Source of the DNA: Chrysomallon squamiferum
Lineage: Eukaryota; Animalia; Mollusca
DNA length: 64,000 nucleotides
Direction of reading: 5' to 3'
NCBI GenBank assembly: GCA_012295275.1
Contig: CM022668.1
Span: 3,906,001 to 3,970,000 of the forward strand
Of this stretch, positions 12,074 to 62,339 are shown one piece after another. Position 1 is the stretch's first letter. Each line of letters starts with the position of its first letter. Made by a program: the position numbers and the translations under genes. The notes under the pieces were generated by a model. The model did no database searches and was not told the origin of the DNA. It was given only the letters and a program-made list of their open reading frames with translations.

Positions 12074-13785
12074 ATGTCTAATCAAGAGCCACCTCCTGCT
12101 TATCAAGCACAATACCCGCCTCCTGGTCAGTACCCACCTCCTTGTCAATACCCACCTCCTGATCAGTATCCTCCACCTGGACAATACCCTCCACCTGGAC
12201 AGTACCCACCACCAGGACAATACCCACCACCAGGCTATTACTGTCCTCCCCAAGGTCCACCACAGGCTCCAGCCGCCCCATCAAAGGTAAATATAATACT
12301 TAAGCTTAGGTACATACAAGATACGTGATACTTAAGCTTAGGTACATACAAGATACGTGATACTTAAGTTAGGTACATACAAGATACGTGATACTTAAGC
12401 TTAGGTACATACAAGGTACGTGATACTTAAGCTTAGGTACATACAAGATACGTGATACTTAAGCTTAGGTACATACAAGATACGTGATACTTAAGCTTAG
12501 GTACATACAAGATACGTGATACTTAAGCTTAGGTACATACAAGATACATAATACTTAAACTTAGGTACATACAAGATACATAATACTTAAGCTTAGGTGC
12601 ATACAAGATACATAATACTTAAGCTTTGATAAATGAAAAATATACATTAAACTCAAGTTTAGGTAAATACTTGATACATATTATACTTAAATTTTGATAA
12701 ATGAAAGATATACATTATACTCAAGTTTAGTAAATATAAAAGAATAAATAAATAATATTCAAATTTTGTTTAATTGTTTAAGTAAAGAAAACATGAAGCA
12801 TGATGTTAATGTGGCAAGGTTGATCAGTTAAAAATTGATGAGTACTAAGACATTTTCAGATTCTTTTCACAGCAGTCTTCACAGCAGTCATCAGTGGTTG
12901 TTGTAAACAGTCAGCGAGATCCTGGTCAGACGGTCATCATAAACAAGTAAGTCTGACACAACGCACTGTGTGTCACACAGTTTTTAGTGTTCATGGGGCT
13001 GATACTTATAATGAATCCTTTCTGCTAATCAGAGGGAAAGAAGTAAAGGTTTATTCTTGTAGTCATTCATTTAACGCCAAGTAATTAAAGATTACAAATG
13101 AAATGAATAGGAGAAATATTTCAAATACAATAAAACCTGCAAATCATGCTCTTTACAGATCTTTATTTATTTATAATTTATATATTTATTTTATTTTATT
13201 TTATTTCATTTTTATTTATTTTATTTTATTTTATTACTATTTTATTTTTTTGGTGTAAGGGAAGTCATTTGTGTTGGAGATTATTGTTTGTGTTTCTTTT
13301 TTTAATGGTTTGGGTTTACAAGAAAGCAGAATGAGTACATATTTAATTTAATTTAATTTTAATTTTTATTTTCTCTTATTTATCAGACGAAGAATGAATC
13401 ATCTTCTTCACTGTCTCATTTCTCTCGTCTTCTTTCCCTGGATTTTTGTTTGGATTGTTTTGGTAAGATAAGTTGTTGTTCAGAGGGGAGAAAAAAAAAA
13501 AAAAAAAAAATGGTGATTGGTAAATTTGTTGTCAGTGTATTGCAAAATTACAATCGTCCTAATTACACTACAATACCTCAATACATTATTATGATACTTT
13601 TCACAGTTGAAATGAGTATTTGCTGTGTTTTATTACTAAATGTCTTATTTTAATGTTAAATTGCTAGTAACAAATGCAGAAGTTTAAACACTTCCATTCA
13701 TTCTGAATTATAAATAAATCATTATTGTTATTATCAAATCATAGTTGTTATTTCTTCTTTTTTTCAGTGCATCATTTCTGACTGA
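12074..13785 (+). CDS. Proline/tyrosine-rich (YPPPGQ repeat) small membrane-anchored protein, 126 aa, CYSTM-like architecture
   Basis: Exons 12074-12286, 12873-12946, 13387-13462, 13768-13785 join in frame: MSNQEPPPAYQAQ, about 7 YPPPGQ-type repeats, QSSQQSSVVVVNSQ...KRRMNHLLHCLISLVFFPWIFVWIVLCIISD*. Hydrophobic C-terminal segment. Confidence 0.85.
12293..12740. repeat. 32-bp minisatellite (TGATACTTAAGCTTAGGTACATACAAGATACG), about 10 copies plus a degenerate tail
   Basis: Period 32 read directly (TAAGC at 12301, 12333 and onward); intronic. Confidence 0.95.
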
Positions 13786-15509
13786 AGATTATTTTCTTAT
13801 AAACCTTAAGACTGCTTTGTGATGGACTATTGTAGATAAAACTTGGATTTATTGAATTTATTAGGTACATAATATATTAGTATTAAAAATATTTATTAAG
13901 TATTCAGTGACTACTAACACTTGAGAGTTAAATTTATTGACTGATTTTTCAGTGTAAATAACATTGAATTAATTCATATTTATATTTATATATTCATGAT
14001 TATATTCGAGTTGAAAAATAAATAATTATTAATATAACTGTGTACATATAATTATATTTACTGTAGATGTTATTTTCATTGAGACTGAATAAATATTAAA
14101 TATTTTAAGAGATACTGTTTAGAATACTTACCCTGATGTGTTTTCTGTAAGGTTATAAAGTCTGTTATGTTTCAGAATGGTGTCAGTAATTACATAACCA
14201 AGCACACTGTAAATAAAAATATGCTTAGACTTTGTATTTAAAGTTGATCATTGTGAATTTAATGCTGCTTGTGACATTATTATTCATGCAAATCATGATT
14301 CATTCTACAATTTGCCATCATGATGGTAAGCATGTTACTGACAAAAAAAAGAAAAAGAAAAAGTGTCTAAATCTGTGTGAACAGTGGTTGATATACTAGA
14401 TGAAAATTAGCAAAATAAGGTGCATATTTTATATTTTAAAACATTTTCAGTTATAATTTTGTTTTTAATTCATGTGGCAGTACATTATATTATAAATCTA
14501 CTACTCAAAGATGAAGATGTGTATGAGAAATACTTGTTTTCTGCAAGTTTGTTTTGTAGCAGTTTCAAGACAGGATAAAAAAATAAAATTGTAATTAAAG
14601 CTGGTACAAAAATGAGCATTCAGTTTCCATGCTATGCTGGTGAGAAAGAAAAATGTTATATTCTAGTTTATTTCAAATATTTTATTAATAGATTGAAAAT
14701 GCACATACATACAGAAACAAAAATAAACAGAAGATTAAATATAAGTTGATTTTGTCCAGCAGCTTAATGACACTAGTATTAGTAACTTGGTGAATGCCAC
14801 AGTAAATAATTTGGCTTTTCACAAAACAGCTCTAGACCCAAACAAAATAATCAGTGAATATATTAAGCATATATTGTGATATATGTGTATGTAAACATTT
14901 TAAATCAGTATTTGAAAAGTGTATCTTACCCGAGGCATAATCAATTATCTGTATAATCATACCAAGTGGTGATAAAAATAATCCAAAAAGTTTGTATAAT
15001 TTTTACATTACTTAGTTTTCTGGAAACTCTTTACTGTTGTGTTAAATGACAGACTGAAGTGTGTTGAATCATATTCTGTACTTTCTGAAGCTCAGGAAAG
15101 ATTATTATACATTTGCATTAACTGAATTGATGCAGTTATGGAAGAAAATCATTTTTTGTACATAAAATTTATAGATTTTAGAAAAATTGTTTTTTCAGTT
15201 GGGAGAACTGGACTTTGGGTAAGTTAATTCAAAATGTACAGATGACAAAGATTTCCATGTAATGTATCTTGTGTAGGTAATGACAGCTTATTTTCCTGTT
15301 GTGTGATGTTGGACAAGGTGAAAATGTATCCCTGTAGCTTATTGATATTTAAACAGAATGACTGCCAGGCTGTAAACAGATATCAGTTTTCAGTAAGTCA
15401 TTACCACCAAATTATCCCAGTGATACTGTACTCCTTACAAGTAATTAACAAGATCTGTAAATGTTTTTCATTCTTATTGTAATAATAATAACAATATTAT
15501 TATTATTAC

Positions 15510-15549
<40 letters not shown>

Positions 15550-15720
15550 TGTAGTAGCAGCAGTTGTTGTTGTAGTAGTAGTAGTAGTATCTTAAAAATC
15601 ACATACAAATTAAGTCAGTTATTGACAGGTATATTCAAATAACATTAAATACATCTATACAGGCTATGAACTGATGTAATGATGATGTTTATCTTCACAA
15701 GTGAAAAATGTTGAGAGTTT

Positions 15721-17171
15721 CTATGCATCAGACATATTGATGCTATTCAAATCAATCTTGTGTAGGACATTTTTTTCCAGCGCAAATGAATACTGAAATT
15801 TAAAAAATATCACTGATTAGAACCATGTAACAACCTTGTAGAAATTGATACATACAGACAGACACACACACACACAGACAGTTAGTTAGATCATCAGAAA
15901 AACTGACTGATTGATAAACAGATAAAGAAACAAAGGAGAGAGAGATAGAAAAAAGATAGGATGAGAGAATAGAAAGAAAGAGATTGTGTATATGCTTGTT
16001 TGAATGGGTGTATGTATGTATATATGTGATGTGTGTATGTGAGTATATATATAGAGAGAGAGAGAGAGAGAGCTTTTTAGAATAAATGTTGAAATAATTG
16101 ATGATTTGACTTAGACAAGAAATCGTCAGCAAGCAGTAAGCACACTTGTTCTCAAAACAGCAGATCTTACATGTTTAAGTTTAGTTGTTTTGGTTATTAA
16201 TTTACCTAGTGAAATTCAGTATCCCTGTGTTTATATTTATTAATATTTACTTTTACATATTGCAAATAGTCTTAAAGCAACCACTGCCCTCTGACAAAGT
16301 AGGGCCTACTACAGTATAGTTACCTCATAGGTTTTACGATTTTGGGGAGATTTGTTAAGTAGTAATCGAACATCAATCTGAAAATAACAAATAGAAGTCA
16401 AGAGTGTTGTTGTTGCCATCATCACATTCATCATCATTAACACAGATTATTATTACTATTATTATCATCATCAGTATGTATTAATATTTATCTTTGTAAT
16501 GTGTAATTTTAATTAGACATTTACTTACATGTAATTTGTTCATATACAGCTTTTGGTATTTTTCGGCAATCTTGAATTTGACGCCTTGCAAATCATATCT
16601 TGTACTTAGGCCACCTATAAGAAGATAAACTCCGGTTTTTACAAGTTGTATTAATATATTGTCATTTAGAGTTTTAAATAACAAATGACAATATATATAT
16701 ATATATACTTACTATACATAATTCATATCATTATCACGAACTCTGATTTTGAAACTTGTGCTTGGAAAAAAAATCTATAGATAATATGTTACTTTAAAAT
16801 GTACCAAAAATATCTTATTTTGGTAAATTCATAGCTGTATTATTTAAATTAAACTGGGTGCAGTGTCCATCTCATTTTATTTTTACATTTTTTTCGTAAT
16901 TAATCAGAATATTTAGAATTATATAAACTTTGTTATAAACTTATTATTAATAGTAGTGGAAGTAATAATAGCAACGAATAGACTTAAATCGGTCAACTTA
17001 AAATGTATGTTGTTTCTATGAAAAATAAGAATCAAAACTAGTATCATTTATACACTTAAGCAGTGTTCAAAATAATAAAATTACCATAGTTACGTTGTGC
17101 AGTCTGCTAACACACATTGTGATGTTGTAATTACCTGTATATATTGTTTCCTCTAGTCTGCAGTCAGACAT
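15721..17171 (-). CDS. UMA-domain-only microprotein (82 aa), truncated UBAP1 paralog
   Basis: Exons 17171-17135, 16614-16529, 16377-16324, 15792-15721 with canonical GT-AG sites give MSDCRLEETIYTGGLSTRYDLQGVKFKIAEKYQKLYMNKLHIDVRLLLNKSPQNRKTYEYSFALEKNVLHKIDLNSINMSDA*. It carries both UMA motifs (LQGVKFKI and YSFALEKNVL) and intron phases 1,0,0, identical to UBAP1. Confidence 0.8.
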
Positions 17172-17603
17172 TTTATAAACGGTTAATAAGTAAATATTAC
17201 AAAGTACAACCTGTTACATTGCTTTCAAACTGACCTATATTTTATGTCAACAAGGATTTTCTCTTATCGAAAAATTGATAAAAAAAAGAAAAAAGAAAAA
17301 AAGATGCATAACTCGCAGCTGTTAGCCGCGAGAACAAAAACGAAACCGTTGCTCATTTCTGTTTAAGCTAATTGTTCAATGAAATACTGTTTGAAATTTT
17401 AAGCAAAACAATTTATTACAGATATTTTTTTTTTCTAATAAACAAATTAAATAATAAAAGAATTTTACATATATAATTTTTTTCTAATAAACATATTAAA
17501 AATAAACGTAACAATCGTTAAAGATATTATTTTCACTGATAAACAAAAAATTAAATATCACGTCTAGTTATGAACAGGTAATTTAATCTCTCATATATAT
17601 ATA

Positions 17604-18655
17604 TGTCACGGTGACTAAAATTTGGCTCGTCCCGTCTAAAGGGTAGCAGATTATAATAGCGTCACGCTATATATATGTATTTATGTATTTTCATAAATTA
17701 ACCCTAAAGGATAATATATAGTTATATAGTTAAACCGTCCGATTCGACGATACGTTATCAAAGCAAATACTGAAATAGCGTTGACAAATAATAAAAAATT
17801 AATTCGGCCTAGTTGGTTACTTGATCATTCTTTCTAAATAATCTTTTAATTATTAAAACACGTTATCTTTGTTTTTATAAATGTAAGTACCACAGAATAA
17901 CACTATAAAAAATTCAACAGCAACAGATTTAGCCATCTTCAATCATTCAAGATGTATGTTACATATACAAAACATTAAAACATAATTACCATTGTCTGCG
18001 TTTTCCTTTGTGTTGTGCAGACAAAGACTCTCAAGAATGGCACTGATCAAAGAGATGTCGTTCAAAACGCGTGTGACTACTTATACACCCATCGCTCGGG
18101 TGTTCAATCTACATCTCTGCAGACAGCCTTTCTGAATTTACTTTGCAGCTTTTAATGCCAGTTTTGGGTTTGTTAAGCCACAGTGTTTCTTAGTTTATTA
18201 AATAACGGAATTTCCCCAAATTATATAATACAGCTTCTAAATAGCCCAAGTACGTCTGCATACGCTCTGCTATTTAGTTTTTGTGTATTTACCCTCATTT
18301 TATTCTGCGACGGACACACCCACTGACCTGTCAGAAAGCGTGCCCGTCGTAGACGTGCTTCACAACAGCTAGCTCTGATTAGCACGTTCATTTTTCTCAT
18401 TCATTCATTCATACCCCCATTTTCTGCCATTAATTAGTAAACAGTTAAGAAATGTAAAAATATAAATTATAAACATGATTATACAAGATAGCTAAATAAT
18501 ATAATAAGATATTTAAGATAAAATGTAGCAGACATTCTGCTTTAATGGGCATATAAAAATGAAGATTTTGTGAAATTCTATAATTCACTGCATATAAAAC
18601 AAAATTACAATCAAAATCAAGTCTGGCAAAGAGGCACTAATGAGGTCCCGTCACA
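17604..18655 (-). mobile_element. Probable solo LTR (~1.05 kb) of an LTR retrotransposon inserted in a (TA)n tract
   Basis: Termini TGTCACGG...CCGTCACA (TG...CA with short inverted ends), ATATA on both flanks, CpG-rich interior, TATA-like TATAAGTA on the minus strand at ~18078-18085, and no gag/pol ORF. Confidence 0.7.
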
Positions 18656-18756
18656 ATATATATATGAAATAAAATCAAACAGTGAAATGAAAGTAATATA
18701 TTTCTATTTACCACAAATGATTCCGCTGCTCTCTACATCCCTCGCGCAGGTTCCTC

Positions 18757-18764
18757 TGACGTCA
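18757..18764. promoter_or_regulatory. Palindromic CRE (TGACGTCA)
   Basis: Exact motif about 185 bp upstream of a candidate ATG at 18949. Confidence 0.4.
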
Positions 18765-18948
18765 TAATCAGTCTGTTGACAGATATCTGAGTGGTGAACT
18801 TTTTTCTTGTGTTTATATACTCCCATCATCTGAAAAACCAGAAACACTATTGACACATCTACTGCAGATGTTATTGCTTCTTCAGTAGTCTGCAGTTATC
18901 ACACTGTTTCATCGTTTACTTCTGTCACGTCCGTTCTGAAGGGATAAA

Positions 18949-19024
18949 ATGGCGACATTCAGATATTTTGTAGCAGTATTATTTTTTAGTATACACTTTT
19001 TACTGAGTCACACAAAACAAATAA
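18949..19024 (+). CDS. Candidate first exon encoding a signal-peptide-like sequence; downstream exons unresolved
   Basis: AAAATGG start context, MATFRYFVAVLFFSIHFLLSHTKQI, then a phase-1 donor (A|GTAAAT). Confidence 0.3.
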
Positions 19025-21108
19025 GTAAATAATTTGAAAAATGAATTTACTTATGGAGTCTATTCCTAAAACCATAGGCCATCCTTTAAGTTTGTGCTTA
19101 ACACGAAACACTGGAAAGTCTGTTATGATTTGATGTGACAGTTTCAATAATAACACGTTTAACCACTTTGTTCCGTAAACCTGTTACATCAGCTGAAACC
19201 CTTTCTATTAAAGACGGTGAAAATATTCAGTCTTTGTACAACTAAAAGTACAATATGGCGAGCTAGAGCCTGGGAGGGAGGGGCAGGTTTAAGACAGATT
19301 CTTGTTTTCAGATCCTGTGGTTATGTACAATTTGTGTGTGTGCGTGCGTACGAATGAGAGTGTGTGGGTGAGTGCGCTTTTTTGAACTTGGGAAAATACA
19401 TTTTTACGTAAATGAATTATTCATTCCTACTCACTTTTTGTGTTTCAGTATTAAAGTGACACTTTCTGGTGTAATTGCTGTTTTAACTGAAGTAATCTGT
19501 AATTTCAGTGATAGTAGATACACGTTGTTGTGTATTTATATATCACAGTTAGATTATTTTCTCAGTACACTGAATATCTAGGACTGTATTAATGTAACAT
19601 GGATAGTAACTGTAACTTTGTTAGCCTGTTTTCAACAACATCAAAAACGATTTGTTAAAAGTTTACCCTTGTAAATTAAATAGTGCAGTATGTTAACGTT
19701 TTCAGAAAAACTGGATTTCTGTTCTTCTTATTTTATCTAACAAGAAAATTAGTTTATCAGAATTTAGATGGCCAGTTTTATTTATTTTAAATAATTATTT
19801 GGAATTGAATAAATATTACTAATTAGAAAATAATTTAATGTTGCTTCAACATTTTATGTTAATCAAAATACGACCTTGCACAATAAGTGACAAAAGTAAT
19901 GAAAGTAAACAAGTTAATAAATGGTTGCAGGACAATTTCTATCATAACATATTTTTATTAATCTCAAACTAAACACTGCACTGTTTTAAAACAATGAATA
20001 CTTATATTATATATAATGTAATTGTTGGGTCTCTTGTAGAAGAGAAGAAAACTGAAAAAAAAAGTTACACATTTTCTACTTCATCCTGATGTATTGTTAG
20101 TCACACAATGGAGGGGGTTGGGGCGAGGGGAAGACACCACTTAGCTTATTTTTCTACTAGTGTCGAAAAAATTAATTTTGCTACATATTGTCTCACTGGT
20201 TATGAACGTGGCAGACTATTTACATATTTTAATATTAAAATTTTAAAAGTAAAATTATAACAAAATTTACGATAAAAAAATAAATAAATCAGTAAGCTGT
20301 TATTGACCTATGAATCGCCGTCTAACCTGATCACCAGCGATGTTGTCTCAGATTTCACTGTACACTGATTTCTGTAACAGGGAAGTGGGGACCGATGAGC
20401 CAATTTAGAAACACTGTATTTATAAGAAATTCCTAACAAAAACACAAACTTTCACAAGATCTATAAATATGTGTTATCATTTCAATATTAAATTGAGACC
20501 AAAGAAAAAAACAATTACTCAAGATAGTCAAAAATCTACTTTTTAACTGTCGCGTTGATGGCCTGCTACAAGGTCTCTGAACAATATGGGTGAAGGTCAC
20601 ATGTAAAGTAATTGCATTGGTGGCTCAAAGATGTCACTATCATTTTACAGTCAGGAGTTTAGGGGGTGGCTCAAAGATCCAAAGTTTCCCGTACATAAAT
20701 GTTATTAGAGGTGTGGTAGTTTATTTATATACTTTATATATCTTGTTATCTTTACATACATTAAAATCTTTTGTTGCATTAACATACATTAAATATTTTT
20801 TGTTACACTTGCATATCCTTTATTGCAATGTTTATAATAATAACCAACGGCAACAACCTGCTAAGGTACTTCTTATTTCAGTATTTCTCTCTTCCAGTTT
20901 CTGTCTCTAATAATAATATATAATATTTACCTCTGTGTTGTAATTCTCTAGCTGAGATTTCATTCATTTATCTCTCATCTACCTCCCCTTTTCACTATCT
21001 GTCTGTCTGTCTGTCCTGTTTGTCTGTTTGTCTCTGTCTACCTATATATTTAAAGCAGATTTTTACACTATTTAAATTGTAATTTTATTCATAAATATCG
21101 TTAACATT

Positions 21109-21643: not shown

Positions 21644-22055
21644 TGAGTACATCTGTATACATAATAATATATCACTGTGAGTACACCTGTATACATAATA
21701 ATATATCACTGTGAGTACACCTGTATACATAATAATATATCACTGTAAGTACATCTGTATACATAATAATATATCACTGCGAGTACACCTGTATACATAA
21801 TAATATAATCACTGTGAGTACATCTGTATACATAATAATATATTTCTGTGAGTACATCTGTATACATAATAATATATCACTGTAAGTACATCTGTATACA
21901 TAATAATATATCACTGCGAGTACACCTGTATACATAATAATATATCACTGTAAGTACATCTGTATACATAATAATATATCACTGTGAGTACATCTGTATA
22001 CATAATAATATATTTCTGTGAGTACATCTGTATACATAATAATATATCACTGTGT
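21644..22055. repeat. 34-bp minisatellite (TGAGTACATCTGTATACATAATAATATATCACTG), about 12 copies
   Basis: TGAGTAC at 21644, 21678 and onward; units nearly identical. Confidence 0.95.
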
Positions 22056-22828: not shown

Positions 22829-23678
22829 GTCTTACATAATATCCAACCTGTTATTCCCTAATATATCTTCAAGACTAACTAAGTTTAAAATAAAGATAAG
22901 AAACCTACTGCCCAGATATAAATTGTGTTTGTCGTCGTATATACATAAGCATGTTCAATATGATAATATTCTGTAAATCTTCCAATAAACCATATTGTAC
23001 ACAGCTTTCTGTAAAGCTGTACAAATTTAAATATCGAATAATTATAGCGGGAACCTGATACTTCCACAAATTTCAGTGCTGAAGTTCTGACACAGTTTTA
23101 AACTTGTGATCAGAGTTTTTACAAATCACATGATGTCAGATATAGTTTCGTAATCTACAAGGTAGTCAACTCAAAGATATTACAGGACATAATTTCAAAC
23201 AGTCTAGAGACTAGACAGACATATTATTGTACATGTCATATCAGTTACAGTACAAGATGCAGGCTAGATAACCAAAGATAACAAAGAACATACGATATAT
23301 TACGCAATCAATGCGTACCCACGGATAACCAGAACCTGATGTTAAGGATCGTTTGAAAACAATTTGGTTTCTTCAGCTTTGTTCAAAACAAGCGTTTCAT
23401 GTTTTAATTGTAACACTGGGATGAAAACATTACTGTGTCGTTAATTTGAATCGTTTTAGAAACAAAACCGAAGAAGTGAATAAACTGATGGTTCAGCCAT
23501 CGAAATTAGCAGGCAAACTAACAGAGGTTTTCAAAATGATGTCGTTCCAATTTAACAGAACAGTGCCATCTCGCCAGAACGTTCCGTCAAAATTTGCCCC
23601 TGCATGAAGCCCAAGCATGTAAACTGGTAAACTGAAATACGACTAGCTATCTTTTATTATAATAATAATAATAATAAC

Positions 23679-23847: not shown

Positions 23848-24880
23848 CACTACTTCTAGCATTACTACTACTTCTACTAGTAATTTTATACTACTATCAT
23901 TAACACTATTCTAGCATTACTACTACGTCTACTAGTAATTTTATACTACTATCATTAACACTACTTCTAGTATTACTACTACTTCTACTAGTAATTTTAC
24001 TACTACTATCAATAACACTTCTTCTAATAGTATTACTACTTCTACTAGTAATTTTACTACTACTATCAATAACACTTCTAATAGTACTACTACTTCTATT
24101 AGTAATTTTACTACTATCATTAACACTTCTTCTAATATTACTACTACTTCTACTAGTAATTTTATACTACTATCATTAAAACTACTACTAGTATTACTAC
24201 TACTTCTATTAGTAATTTTATACTACTATCAATAGCACTTCTTCTAATAGTACTACTACTTCTACTAGTAATTTTATATACTATCATTAACACTACTACT
24301 AGTATTACTACTACTTCTACTAGTAATTTTACTACTACTATCAATAGCACTTCTTCTAATAGTACTACTACTTCTACTAGTAATTTTACTACTACTATCA
24401 ATAACACTTCTAATAGTACTACTACTTCTATTAGTAATTTTATATACTATCATTAACACTACTACTAGTATTACTACTACTTCTACTAGTAATTTTTTTA
24501 TCAATAGCACTACTAATCAATTTTACTAGCTATCAATAACACTTCTAATAGTACTACTACTTCTACTAGTAATTTTATATACTATCATTAAGACTACTAC
24601 TAGCATTCTACTACTTCTACTAGTAATTTTATATACTATCATTAAGACTACTACTAGCATTCTACTACTTCTACTAGTAATTTTACTACTACTATCACTA
24701 TCACCACTATTGTTAGTACAAGCGTTACTAGTGCATCAGCTACTATTACTACTGCAGCTAGTATAACCATTACTACGACTTTTACTACCACTACTTTTTC
24801 TACTGCTAATACTTCTATCATAACTACAACTACTACAATAACTACTATTACTACTTCTACAATAACTGCTACTACTACAA
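23848..24880. repeat. ACT-rich higher-order tandem repeat (~55-60-bp units) grading into (ACT)n-like low complexity
   Basis: Recurring ACTACTACTTCTACTAGTAATTTTA; it explains the Val/Ser-rich ORFs in the track. Confidence 0.9.
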
Positions 24881-29487: not shown

Positions 29488-30552
29488 ATGGCCTACCAAC
29501 AAAACCATCACAGGACTTCTAGTACAGGTCAGTATGAAATGATGTTCTTCTAAAATTTGATAATTGGTTTTATATGCATTTAATTTGTTATAATTGAGAT
29601 GTGAAACTTTGTTAGGATTTGCTCACTGGTTGATATAAACGGTTTTTAAATTTTAGTCTCGTTATGTTATTTGTAGGTTTGGCCTCAAGTATTTCTTGCC
29701 TTGATGGTGTCCCATTCAAGATAGGCGTCAAGTTCAAAACTCCTCCTCGTGTAAGTTGTGTAAATTTTATTGTTCTCAAAAATAACCATCAAAGATTACA
29801 TTCAGAATCAGTTGTTAAAGTTTGTATTCATAATTAAAACTCTGTTTCCTCTTAACAACTTTTAGCCGTGAGCTATTTAATTAGTTAACATCTTTTGAGC
29901 TAGGTAATTGTTACATAACAATACCTGCTTTAAAAGCTTATTATTTTTATACATTCATTGGCTACCTGCATACTGTGGTCCAGTGGTTAGCATTTTGTGG
30001 TGTCACCCATTGCAGTGGTTTCATATTTAAAGTACATGCACATAAGAGATTTTGCTGGTTATGGTAAATATAACTGAAGTCAACAACTAAAAATTTATCC
30101 CTTGAATTTCAAATGATGTATAAAACTTCTGTGTTTCAATACGTCATTATATAAACACAAAACATACACATCCATATGGTGAACATGCACATTAAAATAT
30201 AATAATGACTAACTGCAAAACAGTTTATATACTTTCATATATCACTGAATACACACTTCAATAATTCAAAGTAAATGAACAGTCTCCAAATTTAAAATTT
30301 TTATTTTTATTTTATTAACAATACCAAGCATGGAAAAACAACAACAAAAAAGTCCACACAAGAACAGAAAACTAGATTAGTGTTTTTTAACTGAAATAAA
30401 AGAATGTTGAATTGATTTTATTTTAGTTTATGTGTCCTGATGAAATAAAAGAAAGACAAAGGTGTCCAGCCTTAAATGAGGAGGTGAGAATTTGATGTAG
30501 TTTTTGAAACTTCCAAACAGGTTTTCAATTTTTAAAATATTCCGAATAATTA

Positions 30553-30633
<81 letters not shown>

Positions 30634-33600
30634 GCTCTTGTCACTCTTTTCTTGCTCTCATTCACACTCTCTCTTATCCAAAAGAAATGATAATACTGCA
30701 GTTTAGTTTTCTCTTTTTCTCTGTCTGTATGTCAGTCTGTCTCACTCTGTGTTGTTACTGGTTTTAGTACATGTTTGAGACTGAGGAGGCAGTGTTGGCC
30801 TGGGCAAAGGCGAGAGAAGAATTAAAGGAAAAAGCTCGCCAAGAAGCAGCTGAACAAGCTCGTCAAGAAATAGCTGAACAAGCTGAAGATGCTGTCAATG
30901 ATTCTGAAGATAGTTCAGATGATGACAATAACATGGATGGCATTGACAAGTCAACATCAGTGGACATCTCTCAGCCTGTTGCAGCAGCCATGTCTAACAA
31001 CATCCTCACCCCAGTGCCTATCACATCCACCAAACAGGAACAACCGGACACCAGCAGCCGTGTGGTTGATATTGACTTGACTATGTTTGAAAAAGAAGAA
31101 GATTTGTTTGACAACATTGACAGACAGATGATAAATGAGATGGAGGAACTGAAAACAGTGCTGCAGCCTCCAGCACCACCAAATGACTCCAATACCAACA
31201 GCAACAACAACAACACTGTAGCTGAAAGAAACAACAGCACATTGACTGCTGTGTCTGAGAGTGTTGAGTGCAGTCAGAAAAGTGAATATACCTGTGATAA
31301 CCGCCCTGGTCCCCTAGTGAGACCCGTCCCTGCAGTCAGAAAATCTAAACTTAGTGGGAAATTTTCAGAAGGGGAATATGTTGAACTTAAAAAAGATTTC
31401 CACTCTGATGTTGTTTTTTTCAGTAAGTCCAGTAACACAGCAGATGGTACTGACCCAGGTGACAGTGATGTGACAAAAACACATAAACAACTCTTACCTG
31501 ACAGAAATAACTCACTGGAGATACATACAGCAGGACCTCTTGATAAGGATGATAGCCAAGAAAATAACAAGATAATTCAGCAGAGTAATTTGTTTGATGA
31601 TGTTAATGGGACATGTTCAGTTACTGGTGGAAGTTTGCCTTACCAGTTAGTTGCCAATAACCTAGTTAAACCTGTTCTACCACCAGTTCGGACAGTACTT
31701 CCTCCAATACAGCCTAAACCTCCCCCAGTACATACTGCTCCTCCTGTATCACAGTCACCCCCTCCCAAACCTGCAAGACTTGTACACACTGCTTCTGTAT
31801 CACAGTCACCCCCTCCTACCCAGCCACCCCCTCCCAAACCTGTAAGACCTGCACCTCCTCCCCCTCAAAACAGGAATCTGATAACCTCTGGGGTAAAGAA
31901 AGACAACTTAATTAATTTTTTACCTTGTAAAAGACATTCTGTTCCTATTTTAAATTCTGGGATGTCCCAACAGACAGACTGCATGTCAGTATCATCTGAT
32001 TGTGCCAGTCTGTCATGTAGTTTGTTATCACAAAGTGACGTCATTGGAAGTAAATACAGTCGTCACCTGCAGAATGCATCTCCTTGTGGCACTGTCACTA
32101 ATTGTGGCAGTTCCAGTCAGTCTGATGTGTCACCAAGTTCACCTATCTTTTCTGTGTCACCACCACCAGCCAGACCATCTTCACAACAAGTAAGTGTAAT
32201 ATTATTTAACTGTTTTGATGGGGTTTTTTAGTTTTAATAGAACCATTACAGTTTTATTACCTAATGTTTCATTTGACAAAATGTTAATGTGACAGTGAGT
32301 AGTGAAACAACCTTGTTTCCTAAACTCAGCAGAGTTGTTATAATTCAGTGTGTTTTTTGTTTTTCTAGATAACCTTCGAGAAACAAAACACTTTCATACC
32401 CAGGCTCTTTATTCTGATGCATTGTGTTTTTATTTCATTAGGAATAACATAAATGTGTGTTTTATAGGTATCTGTATCAGAAAACTTTATCCATCTTATA
32501 GTATATATAATTATATACGTATAAGTAGGTATTCACAAGATACTGCGTATTTTCATTTTTCTTTTTCATTCTTTTTTTAATATATTTGCGCTAATTATGT
32601 TAAACAAGTTTAATTTAATATTTTAAGCTATGGAATCCTTACAAGCCACTACCACTACCAACCAGTGTGTCTCAAGATTCCAGCAGCTCAGAGTTTGATC
32701 CCTACACAGTCCTGTCAGAAGAAGAGCAGAAGTTTGTAAACAATTTGACTGACATGGGTTTTACTCGTCCACTGGTGGCTCGAGCAGTAGCCAGACTGGG
32801 CACCAATGAAAGAGAGGTGAACATAGACAGAGATGTTTGTTGTTATCATTCAGTGTTTTATTTATTGTTATTGTTGTTATTTAATCGTTGTAATAACCTT
32901 TGTGTGCCATTTCAGTAAATACTCTTTTTACTGTTATTTATAATTTATTTATTTTTGTTCTTGTTGTTATTTAGTATATATTTATGGTTTTGTTCTTGCT
33001 TGAAGGAATGATTTTTAACTTTCAAAATAATACATGCATTCAGGGTAATTTCTTTTCTTCAAATTCTTCAAAAATAACTTAAATATTAATTTGACCAAAA
33101 ACAATTTTGTTTTTTAAATTAAAAAATTCCTTATTGGTTTTGCCAAGGTTTAGTAAAGGGAAGTATTTAATCACAAAAAAAAAAAATGCTTTTGTTTGCA
33201 GGAACTGTGTTTCATTAAAAAGTGTTATTGTTTTTAAGGTTCTTGATTTCTTGGACAGCATGGACAAGCTTTGTGAAAAAGGTTACAGCACGGTTTTGTC
33301 AGAAGCAGCACTGCAGATGTATGACATCAAAAAGGTTAACATTTTCACCTGTTCATATAACAGAAAATAAACTTTATTTTCTAAATCTTTCCATCTTCAT
33401 CAGATTCAGTTTTCATTTAATTTTTACATAAGTTATAATTCCAAAGATGCAGATTTTCATGTATAAAAAACACACAAAACCAAACCAAAACCAAAACCAA
33501 AAAGTAAGAAGAAAAAAACAAAAACAATAAATAAATAAATTATTTAATTAAGTAGTTTAATTAAATTTAAAAAAACCCCATAAAACTGAACATTTTCTAT

Positions 33601-33885
33601 AATGAACAGATTAGTATTATTATATTATTACTATTAACAATATTAAATTTTGATTTTTATATTTGTTGAACATTTTATTTTTCTGTTTTTGTATCCTTTA
33701 CTGTTAGACGTGACTTACAAAGTCATTTCTTGTACACTGTAATGTGTTTGTTTTTACAGGCAGTAGAATATCTGCAACTGTACTCACAGTTCCAGGAACT
33801 TGGATTTGGCACTGAGAAAATAAAGGAGGCTCTTGTGAAAGAAAACCTTGACAGAGACAAAGCACTTGACCTCCTGACTAGCTGA
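29488..33885 (+). CDS. UBAP1: Ubiquitin-associated protein 1 (ESCRT-I subunit), 7 coding exons, 667 aa
   Basis: Exons 29488-29527, 29677-29750, 30427-30483, 30768-32189, 32628-32816, 33239-33334, 33760-33885 join in frame (2004 nt). N-terminal UMA (LDGVPFKIGVKFKTP...YMFETEEAVLAW), IDLTMFEKEEDLFDNI motif, and C-terminal triple UBA/SOUBA (DMGF, EKGY, ELGF...DRDKALD). Confidence 0.93.
30556..30629. repeat. (CT)n microsatellite in a UBAP1 intron
   Basis: Perfect dinucleotide run. Confidence 0.97.
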
Positions 33886-40300: not shown

Positions 40301-43106
40301 TAAAAAGGCAACGGCTATTCTTACTAAGAGCAAAATTTAAATGAGGATTAAATGTTAACAATCATATACATAGTCTGTCTGCTGATTGTTTTGATTCAGA
40401 GCAATACAAACCTGTCTTAAGCCCTCAGTAACAATTTCTTGAATACTTCTATCTAACCATCGTACAAATGGACGAAAATGAAGTTCTAATGTGCCGTGTT
40501 TTTCTTGTAGCTTTTGTTTTTCATACAAGCATTCCTTGATGGACATCTCAATATATCTGAACAAAAAAAATACTTACAATACATTAGGAGTAAAAGCTAG
40601 TGTCGGAAAAATATAATTACATTTTAACACTGGCCACCATTTTAATCACTGAATTGTGTTGAAAACCGAATTTTATTTCCCATCTTAGTGTCAATACATG
40701 TATCACACAACAAGTAATCATAACTGAGTATTTTAAAAATTAATTTTAAAAATCTAAATTACTTTCAATAATATTAATTAATAATTAGTTAAAGGTTTAT
40801 GTGTAATTTCATCTTCCAATCATTTCAGTCTAACTTCATCTACTTATCAGCCATTCATATGCAGATACAAATGTAATTCATTACTAATCTGTTGGGGTAT
40901 TTTAAAATGATATGAATAAACAATAAATGTTCATCAAAACAATAAACAAAAATGACACACTATTTCTGTTCTTACCTTCTTACTGTTTCAGGAAGATCTT
41001 GTTCTGGTAGAACAACTGAGAACATCTAAAAGTAAAGAAAAGACATATTTAAATTAATAAATGCACACACACACAACAGTAGAATGTTTTTAGAACAAGA
41101 CTGAAGATAACAGATAATAATAATTATTTATTTTCACAGCTTGTACTTTAACCTTATGACAAGTTATCTTTAGAAGTTCTGACTTTCTAACAAATGAATT
41201 TTTAACAATGAATGTAAACAATCATATATTTAATTATTATATTTATAAATCACAGATGAATTAAAATTTGCACAGTAAAATTTAAAAATACAATTTCATG
41301 CATCTTTAATTCTAGTACCCCCACTCCCCAGGCAACATAACTGTTATAATTTCCCCATTCATTTGCACAAGCGAATTTGAAAGCAATCAAACATAAATGT
41401 ATTTATATAAAAATAAATAACATGGTGCCATAAGAGTTAATAGTGGCTTTAAGTGTGTGTGTATATATATATATATAGGTATTTAACTCTGGTGAGTTGT
41501 TAGTCTGCACCAAATGTTTCTCACCTGTTCTGGGTAGTGTTCTGGTACTGACACAAGCAGTTCAAACACTTTGACAGCAAATGGCTAAAAAAGACAAAAA
41601 TGGTTATGCAACAAGTTCTCAGTATAAAAGCAATAATTAAATTATTAATAATTTATGATTTTATTTTTGGTTAAATATTTTTAATCTTTTAAAAGCTTTA
41701 AAGGATTAGTGCACTGCATAACAAATTAATTAAAATTTTAAATTAATCATTCTCTTCTTTTTCTGACAAAAACAGTTATGGATGGATATAAGCAAGAAAG
41801 CCATTATACTTACCCAGTCTGGATCTGTTGGACAAAATTTAATTTTCATTGAAAACTCAGTGTTTGTATCTGTAACAATGGCAAATTTCTCATTGGGAAA
41901 TCTTTTCTTCATCTGATCTATTTCAACTTGTCTCAGTTTCTCTAAAGCTTCTTTGGTGGCATCATCCTTTCTAAGTATCTCTTTCTGTATCACTGGTTTT
42001 AACTTCATTTGCTTCTTACTGGTAACAATAAATAAAAATAAAATTAAAAATAAAATTAAAAATATGCGTAAGTTAAAATTTATAACATTATAGATATATA
42101 CTATTTTATAAGTTTATTATATGAATACTGTAATGACTAAAAAAAAAAAAAATAATAAAGGTTTCTGATATTTAAACCTAAACTTCTCTATTTAATGTTT
42201 GAAAGACCTTTAATAGATCATTAAGTATAATTCAGTTAGCCACCTGTAATTTGTGATTAAGCTATCTACTTGAAATAACTATCACATTCACCTTATGGCT
42301 GGTGATACATTTTCAACATTCTGACTGATGTTGTCAGCAGTTTTATCATCAATGTCATCCAGCAGGAAGTCATGATTAACATCTTCCATGATGTGTGGAT
42401 GCCAGAATCTACATCGCCTACCCCAACTGCAATCTCCATTCTTAAAGTACGGACACACTTTTCTACCTTTACATTTTTCAGATTTCCTGCTGCTTTTGGC
42501 CAAATTTGTCGTTTTCTGAAAATCTGTGATATTACTTTGATCAACTTGATCAGTTTTATCTTCATCATCTGCTGTTTTCAAAGAGGAGTGTTTAAAAGTG
42601 CAGCTATCTCCATACCTGCAGTTGCCATCCTTCAAAAACCATTTGCATGTTTTCCTGTATGTAGCCGATATCTCTGCCAAAGAATAATCTTCAGCTCCAT
42701 GTTTAACCAAATCCTTTTTCAAGACGTAACTCTTAGGTTTAGCAGGATCCTCTGTAGATTCTGATAGAGAATGCACTTCTCTAGCAACATGCTGGTATCT
42801 ACAACGTACGCCATACCTACAGTTTCCAAATCTTGAATAATTGTGACAAATAGCTTTAGATGTATCAGCACTGCTTACTGTGGACACCTCATTTTGACAA
42901 CTCTGATTTTTTTCGGCTGATAAAGAATTGTTCTTTTGGCCTGCCAAATTTTCTGTAGCAGAATCACTTAGCACTTCATGGTGTTGTTGTGGCGAATCTT
43001 CAGTGGAATTATTCAAAATGGTGTGTTTAAATCGACAACTGTCACGATATTTGCAAACTTTGCCTTTTCCAAAAAATCTGCAAATTTGGTTTGACTCTTT
43101 GAACAT
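37381..43106 (-). CDS. CCCH zinc-finger / RWD-like / CHY zinc-finger protein (S. pombe SPBC18H10.09-like family), 11 exons, 799 aa
   Basis: Exons 43106-42292, 42018-41814, 41584-41525, 41025-40976, 40556-40412, 40232-39684, 39466-39352, 38601-38472, 38379-38265, 37866-37757, 37486-37381 join in frame (2400 nt). Four CCCH fingers, PTDPDWPF...PEHYP, and CHY motif GTCKHYKKSFRWFRFPCCGMVYPCDLCH...ICGFC...HWEGGSGCRD. Confidence 0.9.
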
Positions 43107-43610
43107 AACACGATGACAATGAACTTGTTTATAGTCTTTGCTTTTGATAATAACAATAATAATAATAAAAATAACGAAGACAAAAAGCACAAAAAACAAT
43201 ATGAAGAAGCTAGTAAAGACTGAAGTTCTATGAAAAACTGGTAAGCCAGATAAAAATTTGGTGGACTTTAAACCGTGTCACAAACACTTTCTCTCCTGAA
43301 CACAATACCCAACAACCCAACTACATAGCGAAAAATCTATTTATACTAATGTGTATTGCACCAGTGATTGTAATTCGCTTTTAACCAAGACATTAAACGA
43401 TATCCTTACGCCGCTGTAATATAATTCCAAAAATTAAGCGACATAACATACAAGTCAAGATTACAATAGGTTCCTGCATTGTAATTTATAGCGTATTGAA
43501 ATTAAAAACACTATTTGTTTTCGTAGTGATCATCTAGGAATAATGTATTCATACATAATTGTGCGTCAAGCCCGAGGTCAAGGCCGCTAGGTGACTTTGT
43601 ATGACCCAAA
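43107..43610. promoter_or_regulatory. Bidirectional promoter between the CHY gene and mitochondrial EF-Tu
   Basis: Head-to-head ATGs about 500 bp apart, local CpGs, AGGTCAAGGCC half-site cluster near 43574-43584, and YY1-like CAAAATGGC overlapping the EF-Tu start codon. Confidence 0.6.
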
Positions 43611-45023
43611 ATGGCAGCGCCCATGTTTGTCACTCGCTGTTATTCGAAAGTCCTTTGGAAAATCATACAGACTAAATTTCAAAACCCTATTGCAACATTA
43701 AATGTAATCTTTCAAAGGCCGTTTTCAACGAAGCCAGAAATCCAAGACGTTGTAGGTAAACCCCACTGCAACGTGGGGACGATCGGTCACATAGATCACG
43801 GAAAAACAACTTTGACAGCTGCCATAACAAAAGTGTTATCTCAGCAAGGAAACAATACTACGAAGTATATTAGTTATGATGCTATTGACCGTGCCCCAGA
43901 AGAGAAATCGCGTGGTATTACAATTAATTCTACGCACGTCGAGTATGAATCTGATGAAAGACATTATGCACACACAGATTGCCCAGGACATTTAGATTAC
44001 GTTAAAAACATGATAACAGGAACATCACAGATGGATGGAGCTGTGCTTGTAGTAGCAGCAACTGATGGAACAATGCCTCAAACGAGAGAACATTTGTTGC
44101 TAGCAAAACAGATTGGTATTGATAATATTATCGTGTACATTAATAAAGCAGATTTAGTAGACAAAGAACTGCTGGAGCTGGTGGAACTCGAAGTGAGAGA
44201 TTTGCTAACAGAATATGGTTATGACGGTGCACATACCCCAGTTGTTGCTGGCTCTGCTCTGAATGCTCTTGAAGGTAAAAATGAAGATATTGGGAAAAAA
44301 TCAATTTTGAACCTTGTTCTGGCCATTGATCAACACATTAATATACCAGAAAGAGACACAGCTGGGCCATTTTGTCTACCTATTGAAGGAACTGTTGCTG
44401 TTCCAGGAAGAGGCATGGTTGCCATAGGAACTGTAAGGCAAGGTGTTATTAAAAGGGGAGATGATGCAGAACTACTTGGATTTGGTAACCAGATAAAAAC
44501 TGCAGCTTCAGATATTCAAGTTTTCAAAAAGTCTGTCCCTTCATGCAAAGCAGGTGACAATGTTGGTGTGCTTTTAAGAGGAGTCAAAGATGAGTTTGTA
44601 CAACGAGGAATGTTTCTGTGTGAACTTGGAAAGTTTAAACAGTGGGATACATTTGAGGCTCAGGTTTATGTGTTAACTAAGTCTGAGGGAGGACGAGTGA
44701 AACCAATTACTGATAAATACATTCAGATGATGTACAGCAACACGTGGAACATGTCTGCCCTTGTCAAACTCCCAGATGAAAAGTCAATGGTTATGCCAGG
44801 AGACACAACGACCTGCACCATTTTATTGAGAAAACCAATGGTACTGGACAAAGGTCATCGATTTACAATCCGAGAAAACAAAATAACAGCTCTCACTGGT
44901 GTCATCACCAAAACTCTGCCACATTTAGATCTTAGGATTGCTGGGTTTAACTATGAGAAACCAAGAACACACAGAATTGAAGGCAATGCATGGCTGACGA
45001 TGCGAAACAGAGCTAAAAAATAA
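43611..45023 (+). CDS. TUFM: Mitochondrial elongation factor Tu, intronless CDS, 470 aa; likely the EF-Tu2 paralog
   Basis: Basic/hydrophobic presequence, G-motifs [21 protein letters not shown] and GSAL, domains II and III, and a ~36-aa C-terminal extension. Confidence 0.93.
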
Positions 45024-57744: not shown

Positions 57745-60700
57745 TTATTTTCCAATACAGAAGTCACTAAAAATGACATTCAAAATGTCTTCTGAAGAAA
57801 CTTTACCAATAACTTTGCCAATTTCTCTAACAGCTTTTCTGAGTTGTTGACTAGCTATGACGATGTCTGAGTCGAGCAGAGCTGGTAAGACTGCAGATGT
57901 CTGACACAGTGAGTGAGATGTGAGCGATGACGTGTCTGTGTGAGGTTTACATCACCTGTCAGAGGATCCCAACACCTGCAAATGTAAATTGTCATAAATG
58001 TTTCAGTGTATATTTTCACCTGATTGTTTTTATTTGTTACTGACAACAGAAGAAAGTTAGATACTGTAATTTTCAAACCAGAAAAAATTCACTGGTTTAA
58101 TCAGTTTTGAAAGGAGCTAAAATAAATGGAAGAAAATAACACTTACATTTGTTTAACTTTTTCTGTCAGTACATCTACAAACTGTGGAATTCCTTGCTGA
58201 GTGATACAAGAAACCCACATCACTTCAAATCCGTTTGTTCTTTCTTCAGTCTCTCTGAAGTCTTTAAGAAGATCACATTTGTTGAACACTATAATAATGT
58301 CATCAGCTTTGAGGGAAATCTTATCAGCCTCATTTCCTGTTTCACTGTTTTGTATATCTGCTGATTTGTCCAAATTCTGAAATGGATAGCTGACTTGTTT
58401 AAAACAGTTCTCATGCTTTGAATGTGATCTTCTGTTGGCTGGTAAAATAGGTTTTTTCTGAATATCATCTATATGATGTGGAGGATACATATTATGATTT
58501 TTGTCTAATAATTTTTTATTTTGGTTTTCACTTTTCTCTGTATCTGTGGCAGCAACAACTGTATTCTGTTCATCAATCAACTCAACCAAAAATCCAAGTT
58601 CTGACAAATGGCTGATAACAAGTTCTTGTAAATCAGATTTCTTGTTTTCATGTTTAGTCAAAATGGCTGGAGCATCCAACATAATAACTTTAATATCAGA
58701 ATTTAATGCTCTGAAAAATAGATAATACAGTTTATAGAAAATGTATTTAAGATTATGTTGCATTTATGATAAAGTTTTTATTGCATTCTTTCTTTCTGCC
58801 ACTTTCAATATCTTAACTGAAGCTGGCAAGTTTGACTCATGTATATTATTGCTGTTGTTTCTCTGTAGAATAAGTGTTCTTAATTATATTTTAACTTATT
58901 TTTATTTTTTGTTAAAAATTAAAAATTAGAGGCCGTTTATTTAGATTGAGAGAATTAATTGTAATGAAAAATAGAAAGAGGATCAGTCTGACTGACCTTG
59001 ACATTGCACGTTTAATTCCCTCCCTTTCCACATCACCCTCTGCCTCTCGCAGGCCTGCTGTGTCGCTGATCAGAACGGGAAACCCTGCTAAATTGATTGC
59101 TGTTTCAATAACATCTCGAGTTGTTCCTGCTGTGGGTGACACAATGGCTGCAGGTCGCTGGCCTGAACAAATAACAATTGTTAACTTAATTTGCTCTATT
59201 CATTTAGATGCTTATAGCCCTTACAGAATTCTTCAGAATTAATCACAACATCAGTGAAATATTTAAAGTTTACTACATGATGAACATATTAACAGCATGA
59301 AACATTTTTATTTAAATAAATGACTACAAAAGAAACAATGACAAATACTTATGTACTAAAAGTTAGACTTATTTAGACTATTATCACTTATTTTGTACAT
59401 ACTGAAACATAACTTTGAGACAGACAGACACTCACACAGACGGTTTAGAAGACTGCTTTTGCCAACATTGGGAGGACCAATAATGACAACATGGATGCCA
59501 CTTCTCAGCCTCTCTCCACGTCGGCCGTCACCCAGGTGAGCAGAGATTTCTGACAGCAGGTTTTTTATTTCAACTTCAACTGAAACACAAAGAGTAAAGT
59601 GTAGAAACATTCACAGAGTTTAATATGTGGTGGCAATTAAGCTAATACAACAATGATTCACTGAATATAGATCTACTTTAATTTACTTGTTAGAAACTCA
59701 TTTTTATCAAACTTGTGAGTTGGAATTTAATTAGATATTTTACACTTGTGATACTGATTGCAAGCATAAAAGTATTAAAAGTATTAAACATCTGTTGAAA
59801 ACTGCAATCAGTTAACACATTTTAAAAATGAAACTGTTACTTCTGAGTTTATTTCAACTGATGTTAACTTTGTGTGTGAATAGTTGATAGAAGAAACCCA
59901 CAGTAATGAATTTCATAGAAAAATGTTAAATACAATATTATTGTTTTAATTAATATACAAATGTATTAGAAACTTTAAATAAAAATGATCACATTATTAA
60001 TTCAGGAGATGTTTTACACACACACACATATGCAGGTTGTAGTATATTATAATTTTTTTATTTTACCATGATCTAAAACATCATCTTCAATATTTTCTTC
60101 TTCATGGAAATCAATAAAAGCTTCAACATTAGCTAAACACTGAAAATTAAAACAATAATTATTTCCTCAGAAAATATTTCTGTTTTTAGAAACATTGTTT
60201 TAAATAATAAATTATTTAATATTCTGATTGAATACATATTGAAAGTTTTTATTTAATTGTTATACCTTTTATGTTTCCAGCAGTTCAACTCAGAGCAAAT
60301 GAGTAAAAAGAAGTATTTCAGTAAGAAAGTCAATATTTCAGTTAAAATCTAACTTTTACTTTCTTCCATATTTTGTCTTTTCAAAAAGCTCAGCGAGCTG
60401 AAAATATATTCCCTTTAATTTGGAAATAGTGCTTTTTTCAAAAAAATTAAAGTAACAGATGCAAATTCTAGGTTTCAGATCTTCATTATTTAAAACAGAC
60501 AGTCAGTATCACCTTTATCAGCCTGTGTCTCCAGTCTGTGTAGAGTTTGCTTAGTTCACCAGAGAGCTGTCGAAGAGCTTGTTTTCTCTGTGCCTCTGTC
60601 TCAGCGTTCACCAGATCTGCCAACCCTTCAACCTCAGTCAGGTCCAGCTTTCCATTGATAAATGCCCTGAAAACAGAAAATTATTATCAAAAATGTTAGT

Positions 60701-61426
60701 GGTAAATGTATTTATATTTCTGTGATGTAATAATCAAAATATTTTTCATTTATTCACAATTTCGGAGATCACTTGATGATTCTTATGAAAGATTTGTAGA
60801 ACTGATGCTGTTACATGTGCATATTTGTGTTTGTGAAAATGTACTGTCTATTTTCATGTTTTTGTTGCTTTTGTTTTTTTTTCTCACTAATATATAATTA
60901 TGCTTTGGTTAATTCATCTTTTTAAATTTGTTTATTAATCATTATTATTATTACATTGGAGCATCTAATATTTTATTGTTTATATTAGTATTCAAATAAT
61001 AAATTAACGTCTATGGATAACCTACAGCTACAATGAAAAAACAATCTTACTTAGTGTTTAAACAAACAGTCTGTCAAGACATCCTGAATTATCTACCTTT
61101 TGTGAACTCTCCAGCTTCAGCATGTCTCAGACCTGGCAGTTTACCTAGCGCTGTCAACAATGCAGTAACAACAGCAATGCCCCCATGAATATGGAGCTCT
61201 GCTGTATCCTCCCCTGTAAAACTTCGCGGACCTGGCACAAAACATAACTAGATACTGTTCCAATAAATTAATTTTATATTTAAAGAAAAAGTGTTGAGGA
61301 TGGCATTTAATATTAAAGATACAAGTAACAGCAGTAAAAGAGGTTTGCATTGTATCTAGATCTATTAATACTGTTCTATTTTAATAGTAGTTTAACAGCT
61401 ATGCATGTGTGTGTGTGTGGGGGGGT

Positions 61427-61457
<31 letters not shown>

Positions 61458-61854
61458 AGCAATAATTATTATTTTGCACCATGCATTAACATATTATAAT
61501 AATTATTTAAGTAATTACATGAAATGTCAAAATAATTCTGACAGTACCTGGAAACCACAAAACTAGTCCCCTGTCTATAGGTTCCTGTGTGTTTGGATCA
61601 ACAATATTTCTGATGGTTGCTTGCTGTGGAGGAGGTAACTTATTTACAGCACTCAGTCGCAGGATTGCATCACGTGCTGATGGTCCTGATACTCTGATAA
61701 CGGCAACACCAGCTTTACCATGACCTGATGACAATGCAAAAATTGTGTCCTCTCTGCATACAACTTTACTTGAGATATATTTCAGATGGATACTCCTGCT
61801 AAATGTCTTTTTCAGAAAGTTTGATGAAAACCGAGAAAAACATACTGCTGTCAT
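57745..61854 (-). CDS. GTPBP3: Mitochondrial tRNA modification GTPase GTPBP3/MnmE, 8 coding exons; two apparent 1-nt deletions in this sequence
   Basis: Exons 61854-61548, 61231-61097, 60666-60513, 60139-60067, 59579-59436, 59162-58997, 58710-58147, 57975-57745. Motifs [51 protein letters not shown] and terminal FCIGK*. Total is 1774 nt, 2 nt short of an intact frame. Confidence 0.92.
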
Positions 61855-62339
61855 GTTGCTGAAAGACGAAAACAGAAAGAATATATATTTCTAATGAACT
61901 GTTACGTAATTTTTTTTTACATATTTTGGTGTATTTTTATGTTTCATGTGGACTATATTATTATATATATTAACTTTCTACTTTAATTTTACATTCATTC
62001 TTTAATTCTTTCTTTATATATATTTTTTTCTCTCTATCTATCATATATACACATACAAAAACATAAGAAATACGTACATAAGTACACACAATATGACACT
62101 CGAGACCTGACTATGCAGTATACTGTACAATATTGAGTATACTAAAATTCGTGATTTTCATAATTTATTTTAACTTGAATTCTATTTCCAAAATTGAAAA
62201 AAATAAAAATATGTATCAATAGAAAGGTGTTATTCAGTGTAATATATACCACAGTATACTCAAGGTTATATCGATGAGGTGTTTTAACTCTCCCAAACAC
62301 GAATCAGGGAAAATAAACAATAAAACGTGCTAAAAGAAA

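Follow-up and report, generated by a model that had tools for sequence, protein, structure and literature searches.

A spliced UMA-only gene beside UBAP1 in the snail Chrysomallon squamiferum, and its predicted relation to ESCRT-I

A spliced, transcribed and previously unannotated gene with an open frame for a small UMA domain protein lies on the minus strand, 12 kb from UBAP1, in a 64,000-nucleotide stretch of Chrysomallon squamiferum DNA (contig CM022668.1; hereafter, the window). Its probable origin is a duplicate of the neighbouring UBAP1 that was inverted and truncated. The fuller reading, in which such a copy is also predicted to supply a weak, less selective fourth subunit of ESCRT-I that has no ubiquitin reader, is preferred tentatively, with confidence a little short of even.

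Gene structure and transcripts

Table 1. Coordinates of the UMA-only gene, its alternative 5′ exons and the neighbouring UBAP1 in the window
Feature	Position	Strand	Remarks
First coding exon, 82-aa form	17135..17171	-	ATG at 17171; phase-1 donor
Exon 2, UMA-N block	16529..16614	-	LQGVKFKI where UBAP1 has LDGVPFKI
Exon 3, variable middle of UMA domain	16324..16377	-	
Exon 4, coding part, UMA-C block	15721..15792	-	YSFALEKNVL, 13 more residues, stop
3′ untranslated part	15599..15720	-	Covered by RNA contigs of exon 4; 15599 is not a defined 3′ end
First-exon extension to second donor at 17085	17085..17134	-	Out of frame with ATG 17171; joint in run X1, depth 8.9
Alternative 5′ exon, donor 17990	17990..18080	-	Joint in run X1, depth 17.7; the open frame, not the exon, ends at 18080
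Alternative upstream coding exon	18712..18829	-	Phase-1 donor 18712; ATG at 18829/18826; 109/108 aa
Full-length UBAP1, 667 aa, 7 coding exons	29488..33885	+	Model from sequence and homology
UBAP1 coding exons 1-3 (40, 74, 57 nt)	29488-29527, 29677-29750, 30427-30483	+	Phases 1, 0, 0
UBAP1 coding exons 4-7	30768-32189, 32628-32816, 33239-33334, 33760-33885	+	

The gene consists of four exons of 37, 86, 54 and 72 nt (Table 1). As the initial annotation had described, these exons have canonical splice sites (GT donors and AG acceptors at every intron, phases 1, 0, 0) and give an intact frame of 82 codons followed by a stop. The stop is located 17 residues past the conserved Glu of the UMA domain. 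The absence of a linker and of SOUBA (UBA repeats), also claimed previously, is borne out by the sequence and by the end of the profile match at position 67 of 100, which indicates that the helix directly after the UMA domain is absent as well. Neither AATAAA nor ATTAAA occurs on the minus strand in 14700-15720, downstream of the gene. A small multi-exon gene on the plus strand (12075-13800), whose protein carries PPPGQY repeats and, at its C-terminus, a short hydrophobic part, is convergent with the UMA-only gene; its first exon has no Pfam match. RNA contigs over 14800-15464 may belong to the 3′ UTR of either gene.

The RNA evidence consists of contigs from four runs (X1-X4) of a single study. 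Of the three junctions predicted in the initial annotation, 16529/16377 (exons 2-3) and 16324/15792 (exons 3-4) are present in all four runs, with canonical introns, whereas 17135/16614, which leads to the first exon, is present in only one (X1), at a depth of 36.9 compared with 89.6 and 114.5 downstream, contig depth being a poor gauge of expression level. The 82-aa protein is thus spliced as predicted in one of four runs, but is only one of several forms. The coding exons have no letter differences across the four runs.

Exon 2 has four different 5′ partners (donors 17135, 17085, 17990 and 18712). The exon ending at 18712 is in frame with exon 2 and is found in at least three of the four runs (X2, X3, X4), as a loose contig end behind 16615 that maps to 18713; run X1 may also hold this form. 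The records of X2-X4 contain about 280-370 letters ahead of exon 2, compared with the 118 needed to reach the ATG, and an acceptor-like AG sits just before 18829 on the minus strand; more upstream exons are therefore possible, and the protein could exceed 109 aa. The upstream exon (18712-18829) has no meaningful Pfam match. A 25-nt likeness between the first exon (17135-17171) and a stretch upstream of the 18712 exon does not stand out clearly from chance (35/1000 random stretches). The open frames that lead to donors 17085 and 17990 contain no in-frame start codon (Met). The source of donor 17990 is a region (17600-18300) that yields many divergent RNA-contig pieces and behaves as a dispersed repeat.

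On the plus strand, a short hydrophobic frame at 18949-19027, pointing away from the 18712 exon, starts in a favourable context, carries a phase-1 GT donor and resembles a first exon encoding a signal peptide. It has no Pfam match, and may represent a second gene with a promoter common to the UMA-only gene. A CRE-like TGACGTCA lies near 18758.

UMA domain and signs of selection

Pairwise comparisons detect the domain only marginally. Alignment of the 82-aa form with the neighbouring UBAP1 gives a weak score of 39, which 7 of 2000 shuffles match or exceed, and the comparisons with four UBAP1s are equalled by 7, 9, 8 and 80 of 2000 shuffles. Among 1.84 billion representative proteins searched with seven query rows, exons 2 and 4 included, 57 matched. 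The UMA profile was built from 56 UBAP1 N-termini (53 of the 57 matches and three from a UBAP1 search) and did not include the UMA-only protein; P0037, P0038 and P0063, which are multi-stretch repeats, were left out. A UBA-type Pfam match is found in 43 of the 56 UBAP1-like members. The scores on this profile are 34.0 bits for the 82-aa form (P 1e-12), against at most 9.6 bits among 2000 shuffles, and 32.9 bits for the 109-aa form; on a profile of only the 17 strongest matches, the 82-aa form scores 19.3 bits. In a six-frame scan of the window (2925 pieces), exon 4 alone (15.3 bits) and exon 2 alone (10.8 bits) rank third and fourth, behind UBAP1's own two pieces. The UMA membership asserted in the initial annotation is thereby upheld: judged by its sequence profile, the small protein is a UMA domain protein, with both conserved blocks matched. 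When single exons were compared with Pfam (E up to 1), exons 2 and 4 matched no family, MVB12 (PF10240) included, and UBAP1 exon 2 matched PF10240 at E 0.14. A PDB sequence search returned no UMA chain. The exon-2 frame retrieved only unrelated matches below 0.9 from the ESM Atlas, where the Patella UMA had no usable match.

Certain residues of the two blocks are retained and others replaced. The N block keeps L, G, V, F, K and I, and the C block Y, F, E, V and L; in particular, Tyr60, Phe62 and Glu65 constitute the Y-x-F-x-x-E pattern, the Tyr and Glu of which occur in 56/56 UBAP1 proteins. The Lys (53/56) and Ile (44/56) that typically follow V-x-F in UBAP1 are also retained. The change of VPF to V-K-F that had been pointed out before is seen in exon 2, and LQ stands in place of LD. 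Lys at the Pro position and Gln at the Asp position each occur in 0/56 UBAP1 proteins; the middle position of VPF is Pro in 49 and Gln, Ala or Glu in the other seven (5, 1 and 1, respectively). VPF has been described as a feature of UMA proteins (PMC2881412), from which the small protein departs. In addition, none of the four prolines conserved in the UBAP1 UMA domain is retained, and the V-to-Y spacing is 36, compared with a mode of 33 in UBAP1, where 36 occurs in 1/56. The VPF proline is lacking in the natural UBAP1-like proteins P0035, P0043, P0044, P0047, P0049, P0055 and P0056, and many UBAP1-like proteins have Val or Ile for the Phe, which indicates that the motif varies more among animals than papers on the human proteins state.

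The small protein and the neighbouring UBAP1 are 26% identical over 61 columns, and this identity is concentrated at conserved columns (10/19, vs 6/42 at variable columns; Fisher p 0.004). When the neighbour's exons were decayed neutrally in silico to 28% identity, 184 of 5000 runs remained stop-free and none reached 30 bits (maximum, 21); the simulated changes excluded indels, and including them could only reduce the stop-free and score figures. Because neutral decay never reached 30 bits, we infer purifying selection on the gene, in agreement with the signs of selection, rather than decay, that had been read from the sequence initially. The gene is presumably translated.

It is highly improbable that the gene is a duplicate in decay that is still transcribed, or that its RNA is non-coding and the open frame a relic. 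Such a reading would accommodate the four 5′ partners of exon 2, two of which bring no in-frame start, and the lack of an ortholog in searches of limited reach (see below), but at 26-28% identity a neutral sequence seldom stays stop-free and never attains 30 bits in these simulations, six splice sites are intact and used, and the coding exons are invariant in the four runs.

Relation to UBAP1 and predicted place in ESCRT-I

The neighbouring gene is a full-length UBAP1 arranged head-to-head with the UMA-only gene. Its exon at 30768 has Gigantopelta aegis as the best named match (40% identity over 64% of the query), and its UMA core is 77% identical to that of G. aegis. The initial annotation held that the small exons mirror UBAP1 coding exons, whose lengths (40, 74 and 57 nt) and phases are as it described. 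This holds exactly for introns 1 and 3, which interrupt the same codon in the same phase, to the base: counted from the exon start, the N-block Leu comes eighth in both genes, and the last intron lies directly ahead of the conserved Tyr in both. Intron 2 shares only UBAP1's phase, its position being four codons off from one anchor and one from the other. The chance of two exact matches among three introns is about 6e-4, a rough figure that assumes uniform positions and no phase bias. The ACAG/GT shared by the first-exon ends is present, but as a near match to the usual donor consensus it says little. Unspliced gene calls of other animals (P0006, P0007 and P0067, the last from an Octopus cluster) run into UBAP1 introns at those same places, which indicates that these introns are stable in UBAP1.

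Several observations count against a recent copy. Comparison of the two loci at the DNA level gives microsatellite-level matches only, with no remaining similarity; insect and vertebrate UBAP1s are about 30-37% identical to the neighbour, above the 26% of the small protein; the small protein scores 35.6 bits on a profile of distant UBAP1s and 17.8 on one of the gastropod/cephalopod type, which is weak evidence as broader profiles favour divergent sequences; and in the free tree it falls outside the gastropod/cephalopod UBAP1 group, on a branch of length 1.94. In AU tests, no local placement is rejected: p is 0.30 for a sister position to the neighbour, 0.40 for one to the neighbour plus Gigantopelta, and 0.46 for a place within the gastropod/cephalopod group. 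The trees omit P0005, which has no middle exon, and the AU tests used 34 of 57 rows, 23 further rows being left out.

That the gene is instead an old paralog of the UMAD1 or truncated-MVB12 type, i.e., an ordinary and merely unannotated ESCRT-I subunit gene beside UBAP1, is quite unlikely. The small protein has the layout of UMAD1 (tcag7.903 group), with the UMA domain near the C-terminus behind an N-terminal extension and no ubiquitin-binding domain (PMC10445733, PMC2881412); its conservation across Metazoa has been reported (PMC2881412), and the V-to-Y spacing of human UMAD1 is likewise 36 (V89, Y125; PMC10445733). The small protein also lacks the neighbour's gastropod/cephalopod-type C-block residues and, as noted, leaves that group in the free tree. 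However, the old-paralog reading has to account for two introns that match UBAP1 to the base in a gene 12 kb away, for UBAP1-typical Lys and Ile after the motif, for AU tests that do not reject local UBAP1 placements, and for the lack of a PF10240 match in exons 2 and 4 under conditions where UBAP1 exon 2 gives one. Human UMAD1 has its UMA domain coded in one exon, which also counts against it. UMAD1, here compared by description only, retains and needs VPF, and a typical UMAD1 ortholog should likewise have kept it; the small protein has UBAP1's introns and location and a changed motif. A UMA domain close to the C-terminus is shared with MVB12A/B (MABP + UMA; PF10240) too, but the exons found, which do not include the 5′ end of the longer form, contain no MABP.

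No ortholog of the UMA-only gene, which the initial annotation had proposed to be lineage-specific, was recovered from protein collections by searches of limited reach, and the tree gives no date. Among short proteins, 299 candidates of up to 158 aa gave two matches, both unspliced UBAP1 exon calls. None of the 57 matches among the 1.84 billion representatives is a UMA-only ortholog; two 109-aa matches, P0044 and P0048, were rejected as orthologs and group with arthropod-type UBAP1s. Proteins of 71-2000 aa contributed 26 candidates, none of which scored, and two metagenome scans gave 577 and 598 pattern matches, none confirmed. In simulation, the profile used for the 71-2000 aa search lets through 186 of 200 simulated relatives that are 70% identical, 121 that are 60% and 28 that are 50%, the representative search passes 11 of 200 at 80%, and a word filter lowers the reach of the searches further; altogether they miss unannotated genes and reach little below 60-70% identity. 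The gene's own sequence would pass the search cut-offs, yet was not returned, and public protein sets therefore appear to lack the gene. No UMAD1 or MVB12 sequence was among the returns of the protein searches. A literature search, mostly without subscription papers, found no UBAP1 duplication in gastropods or molluscs and no invertebrate UMA-only copy of UBAP1.

Known contacts of the UMA domain indicate how the small protein might act. In the human ESCRT-I complex, TSG101 and VPS37B form a pocket that buries the Val and Phe of VPF, and the Pro lies against a TSG101 tyrosine; a VPF triple-alanine mutant blocks ESCRT-I assembly (bioRxiv 10.1101/2020.01.31.927327). In human UBAP1, triple mutants of L17-D18-D19 and of V20-P21-F22 each block binding, and E59A leaves no binding with VPS37B; a fragment of residues 1-68 is enough for stable complex formation and has a dominant-negative effect (PMC3314968). 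The helix following UMA restricts UBAP1 to VPS37A (PMC4007767).

The preferred reading makes the small protein a weak alternative fourth subunit, predicted to attach to the TSG101-VPS37 core. Its Val24 and Phe26 are expected to fit the TSG101/VPS37 pocket as before, and Tyr60-Phe62-Glu65 to touch the VPS37 stalk. Without the Pro and the Asp ahead of it, affinity for ESCRT-I would fall, and the missing helix after UMA would reduce selectivity among VPS37 partners. A share of ESCRT-I could thereby be drawn away from ubiquitin-cargo sorting, and the alternative first exons could vary the N-terminal extension. UMA subunits appear dispensable for phagophore closure according to one review (PMC13142933), which implies that a cargo-blind complex could still serve some ESCRT tasks.

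Both triplets that are essential in human UBAP1 (LDD and VPF; PMC3314968) are changed here, which argues against the predicted binding. It is unlikely, although less so than an old paralog, that the gene is UBAP1-derived and selected but has lost ESCRT-I binding, with the C block serving another partner or only the fold of the protein. VPF is described as completely conserved and as the main anchor, and its triple-alanine replacement abolishes binding in MVB12A, UBAP1 and UMAD1 (bioRxiv 10.1101/2020.01.31.927327; PMC10445733; PMC3314968). Pro→Lys and Asp→Gln are states with no counterpart among the 56 UBAP1 proteins, and exon 4 outscores exon 2 in the six-frame scan. Moreover, UBAP1 truncations that keep UMA and lack SOUBA are harmful in mice and people (PMC9691459, PMC8244911), so that a tolerated copy may have had to shed binding. 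Against a loss of binding, the eleven N- and C-block residues listed above are all retained, ESCRT-I is the sole partner described for either UMA block in the available parts of the cited literature, and no single Pro mutant was found in those parts.

By comparison with known systems, the small protein resembles UBAP1 (human, and the neighbour) in its UMA domain, as judged by profile, and in introns placed identically ahead of the N and Y-x-F-x-x-E blocks, and differs from it in lacking the post-UMA helix, linker and SOUBA, in VKF and LQ, and in its alternative first exons. SPG80 truncations of human and mouse UBAP1 likewise keep UMA and lose SOUBA, but are disease alleles of one gene with an intact VPF, whereas the snail has a separate gene with a changed motif that is apparently selected (PMC8244911, PMC9691459). 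The proposed kind of subunit, UMA-only and ubiquitin-blind, has a precedent in human UMAD1, a known UMA-only ESCRT-I subunit (PMC10445733). A bolder extension, which we regard as somewhat doubtful, is that the snail lineage independently built a second UMA-only ESCRT-I subunit from a truncated UBAP1: a selected, SPG80-like form without SOUBA that would be tolerable through its detuned V-K-F, would have N-termini switchable by first exons, and would titrate ESCRT-I between ubiquitin-dependent sorting and other jobs.

Should the small protein bind, the proline of VPF would prove unnecessary, UBAP1 would be shown able to give rise anew to UMA-only subunits, and an animal would be able to maintain by selection a SOUBA-less type of UBAP1 that is harmful in mammals; the protein would then be a natural variant for studying how competition among fourth subunits tunes ESCRT-I. 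If it does not bind, the gene would be a small case of a domain fragment re-used after duplication. In either case, a spliced gene is apparently missing from the public protein sets.

Other features of the window

The window is AT-rich animal DNA (GC 25-39%). A GC-richer segment at 23244-23642 has open frames on both strands and no meaningful Pfam match; its minus-strand frame contains a G-x-F-x-W-x-D-G pattern, which we take to be reminiscent of C-type lectins. A single long plus-strand frame at 43605-45023 encodes elongation factor Tu with an N-terminal extension resembling a mitochondrial presequence, and is head-to-head with a CCCH zinc-finger gene on the minus strand (42288-43277). Exons of a TrmE/GTPBP3-like tRNA-modification GTPase (TrmE_N match) are located on the minus strand at 58143-61890. 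Tandem repeat arrays were noted by eye at 12306-12600, 21650-22050 and 23850-24700, the last of which has Thr/Ser-rich frames with shifts and is probably non-coding.
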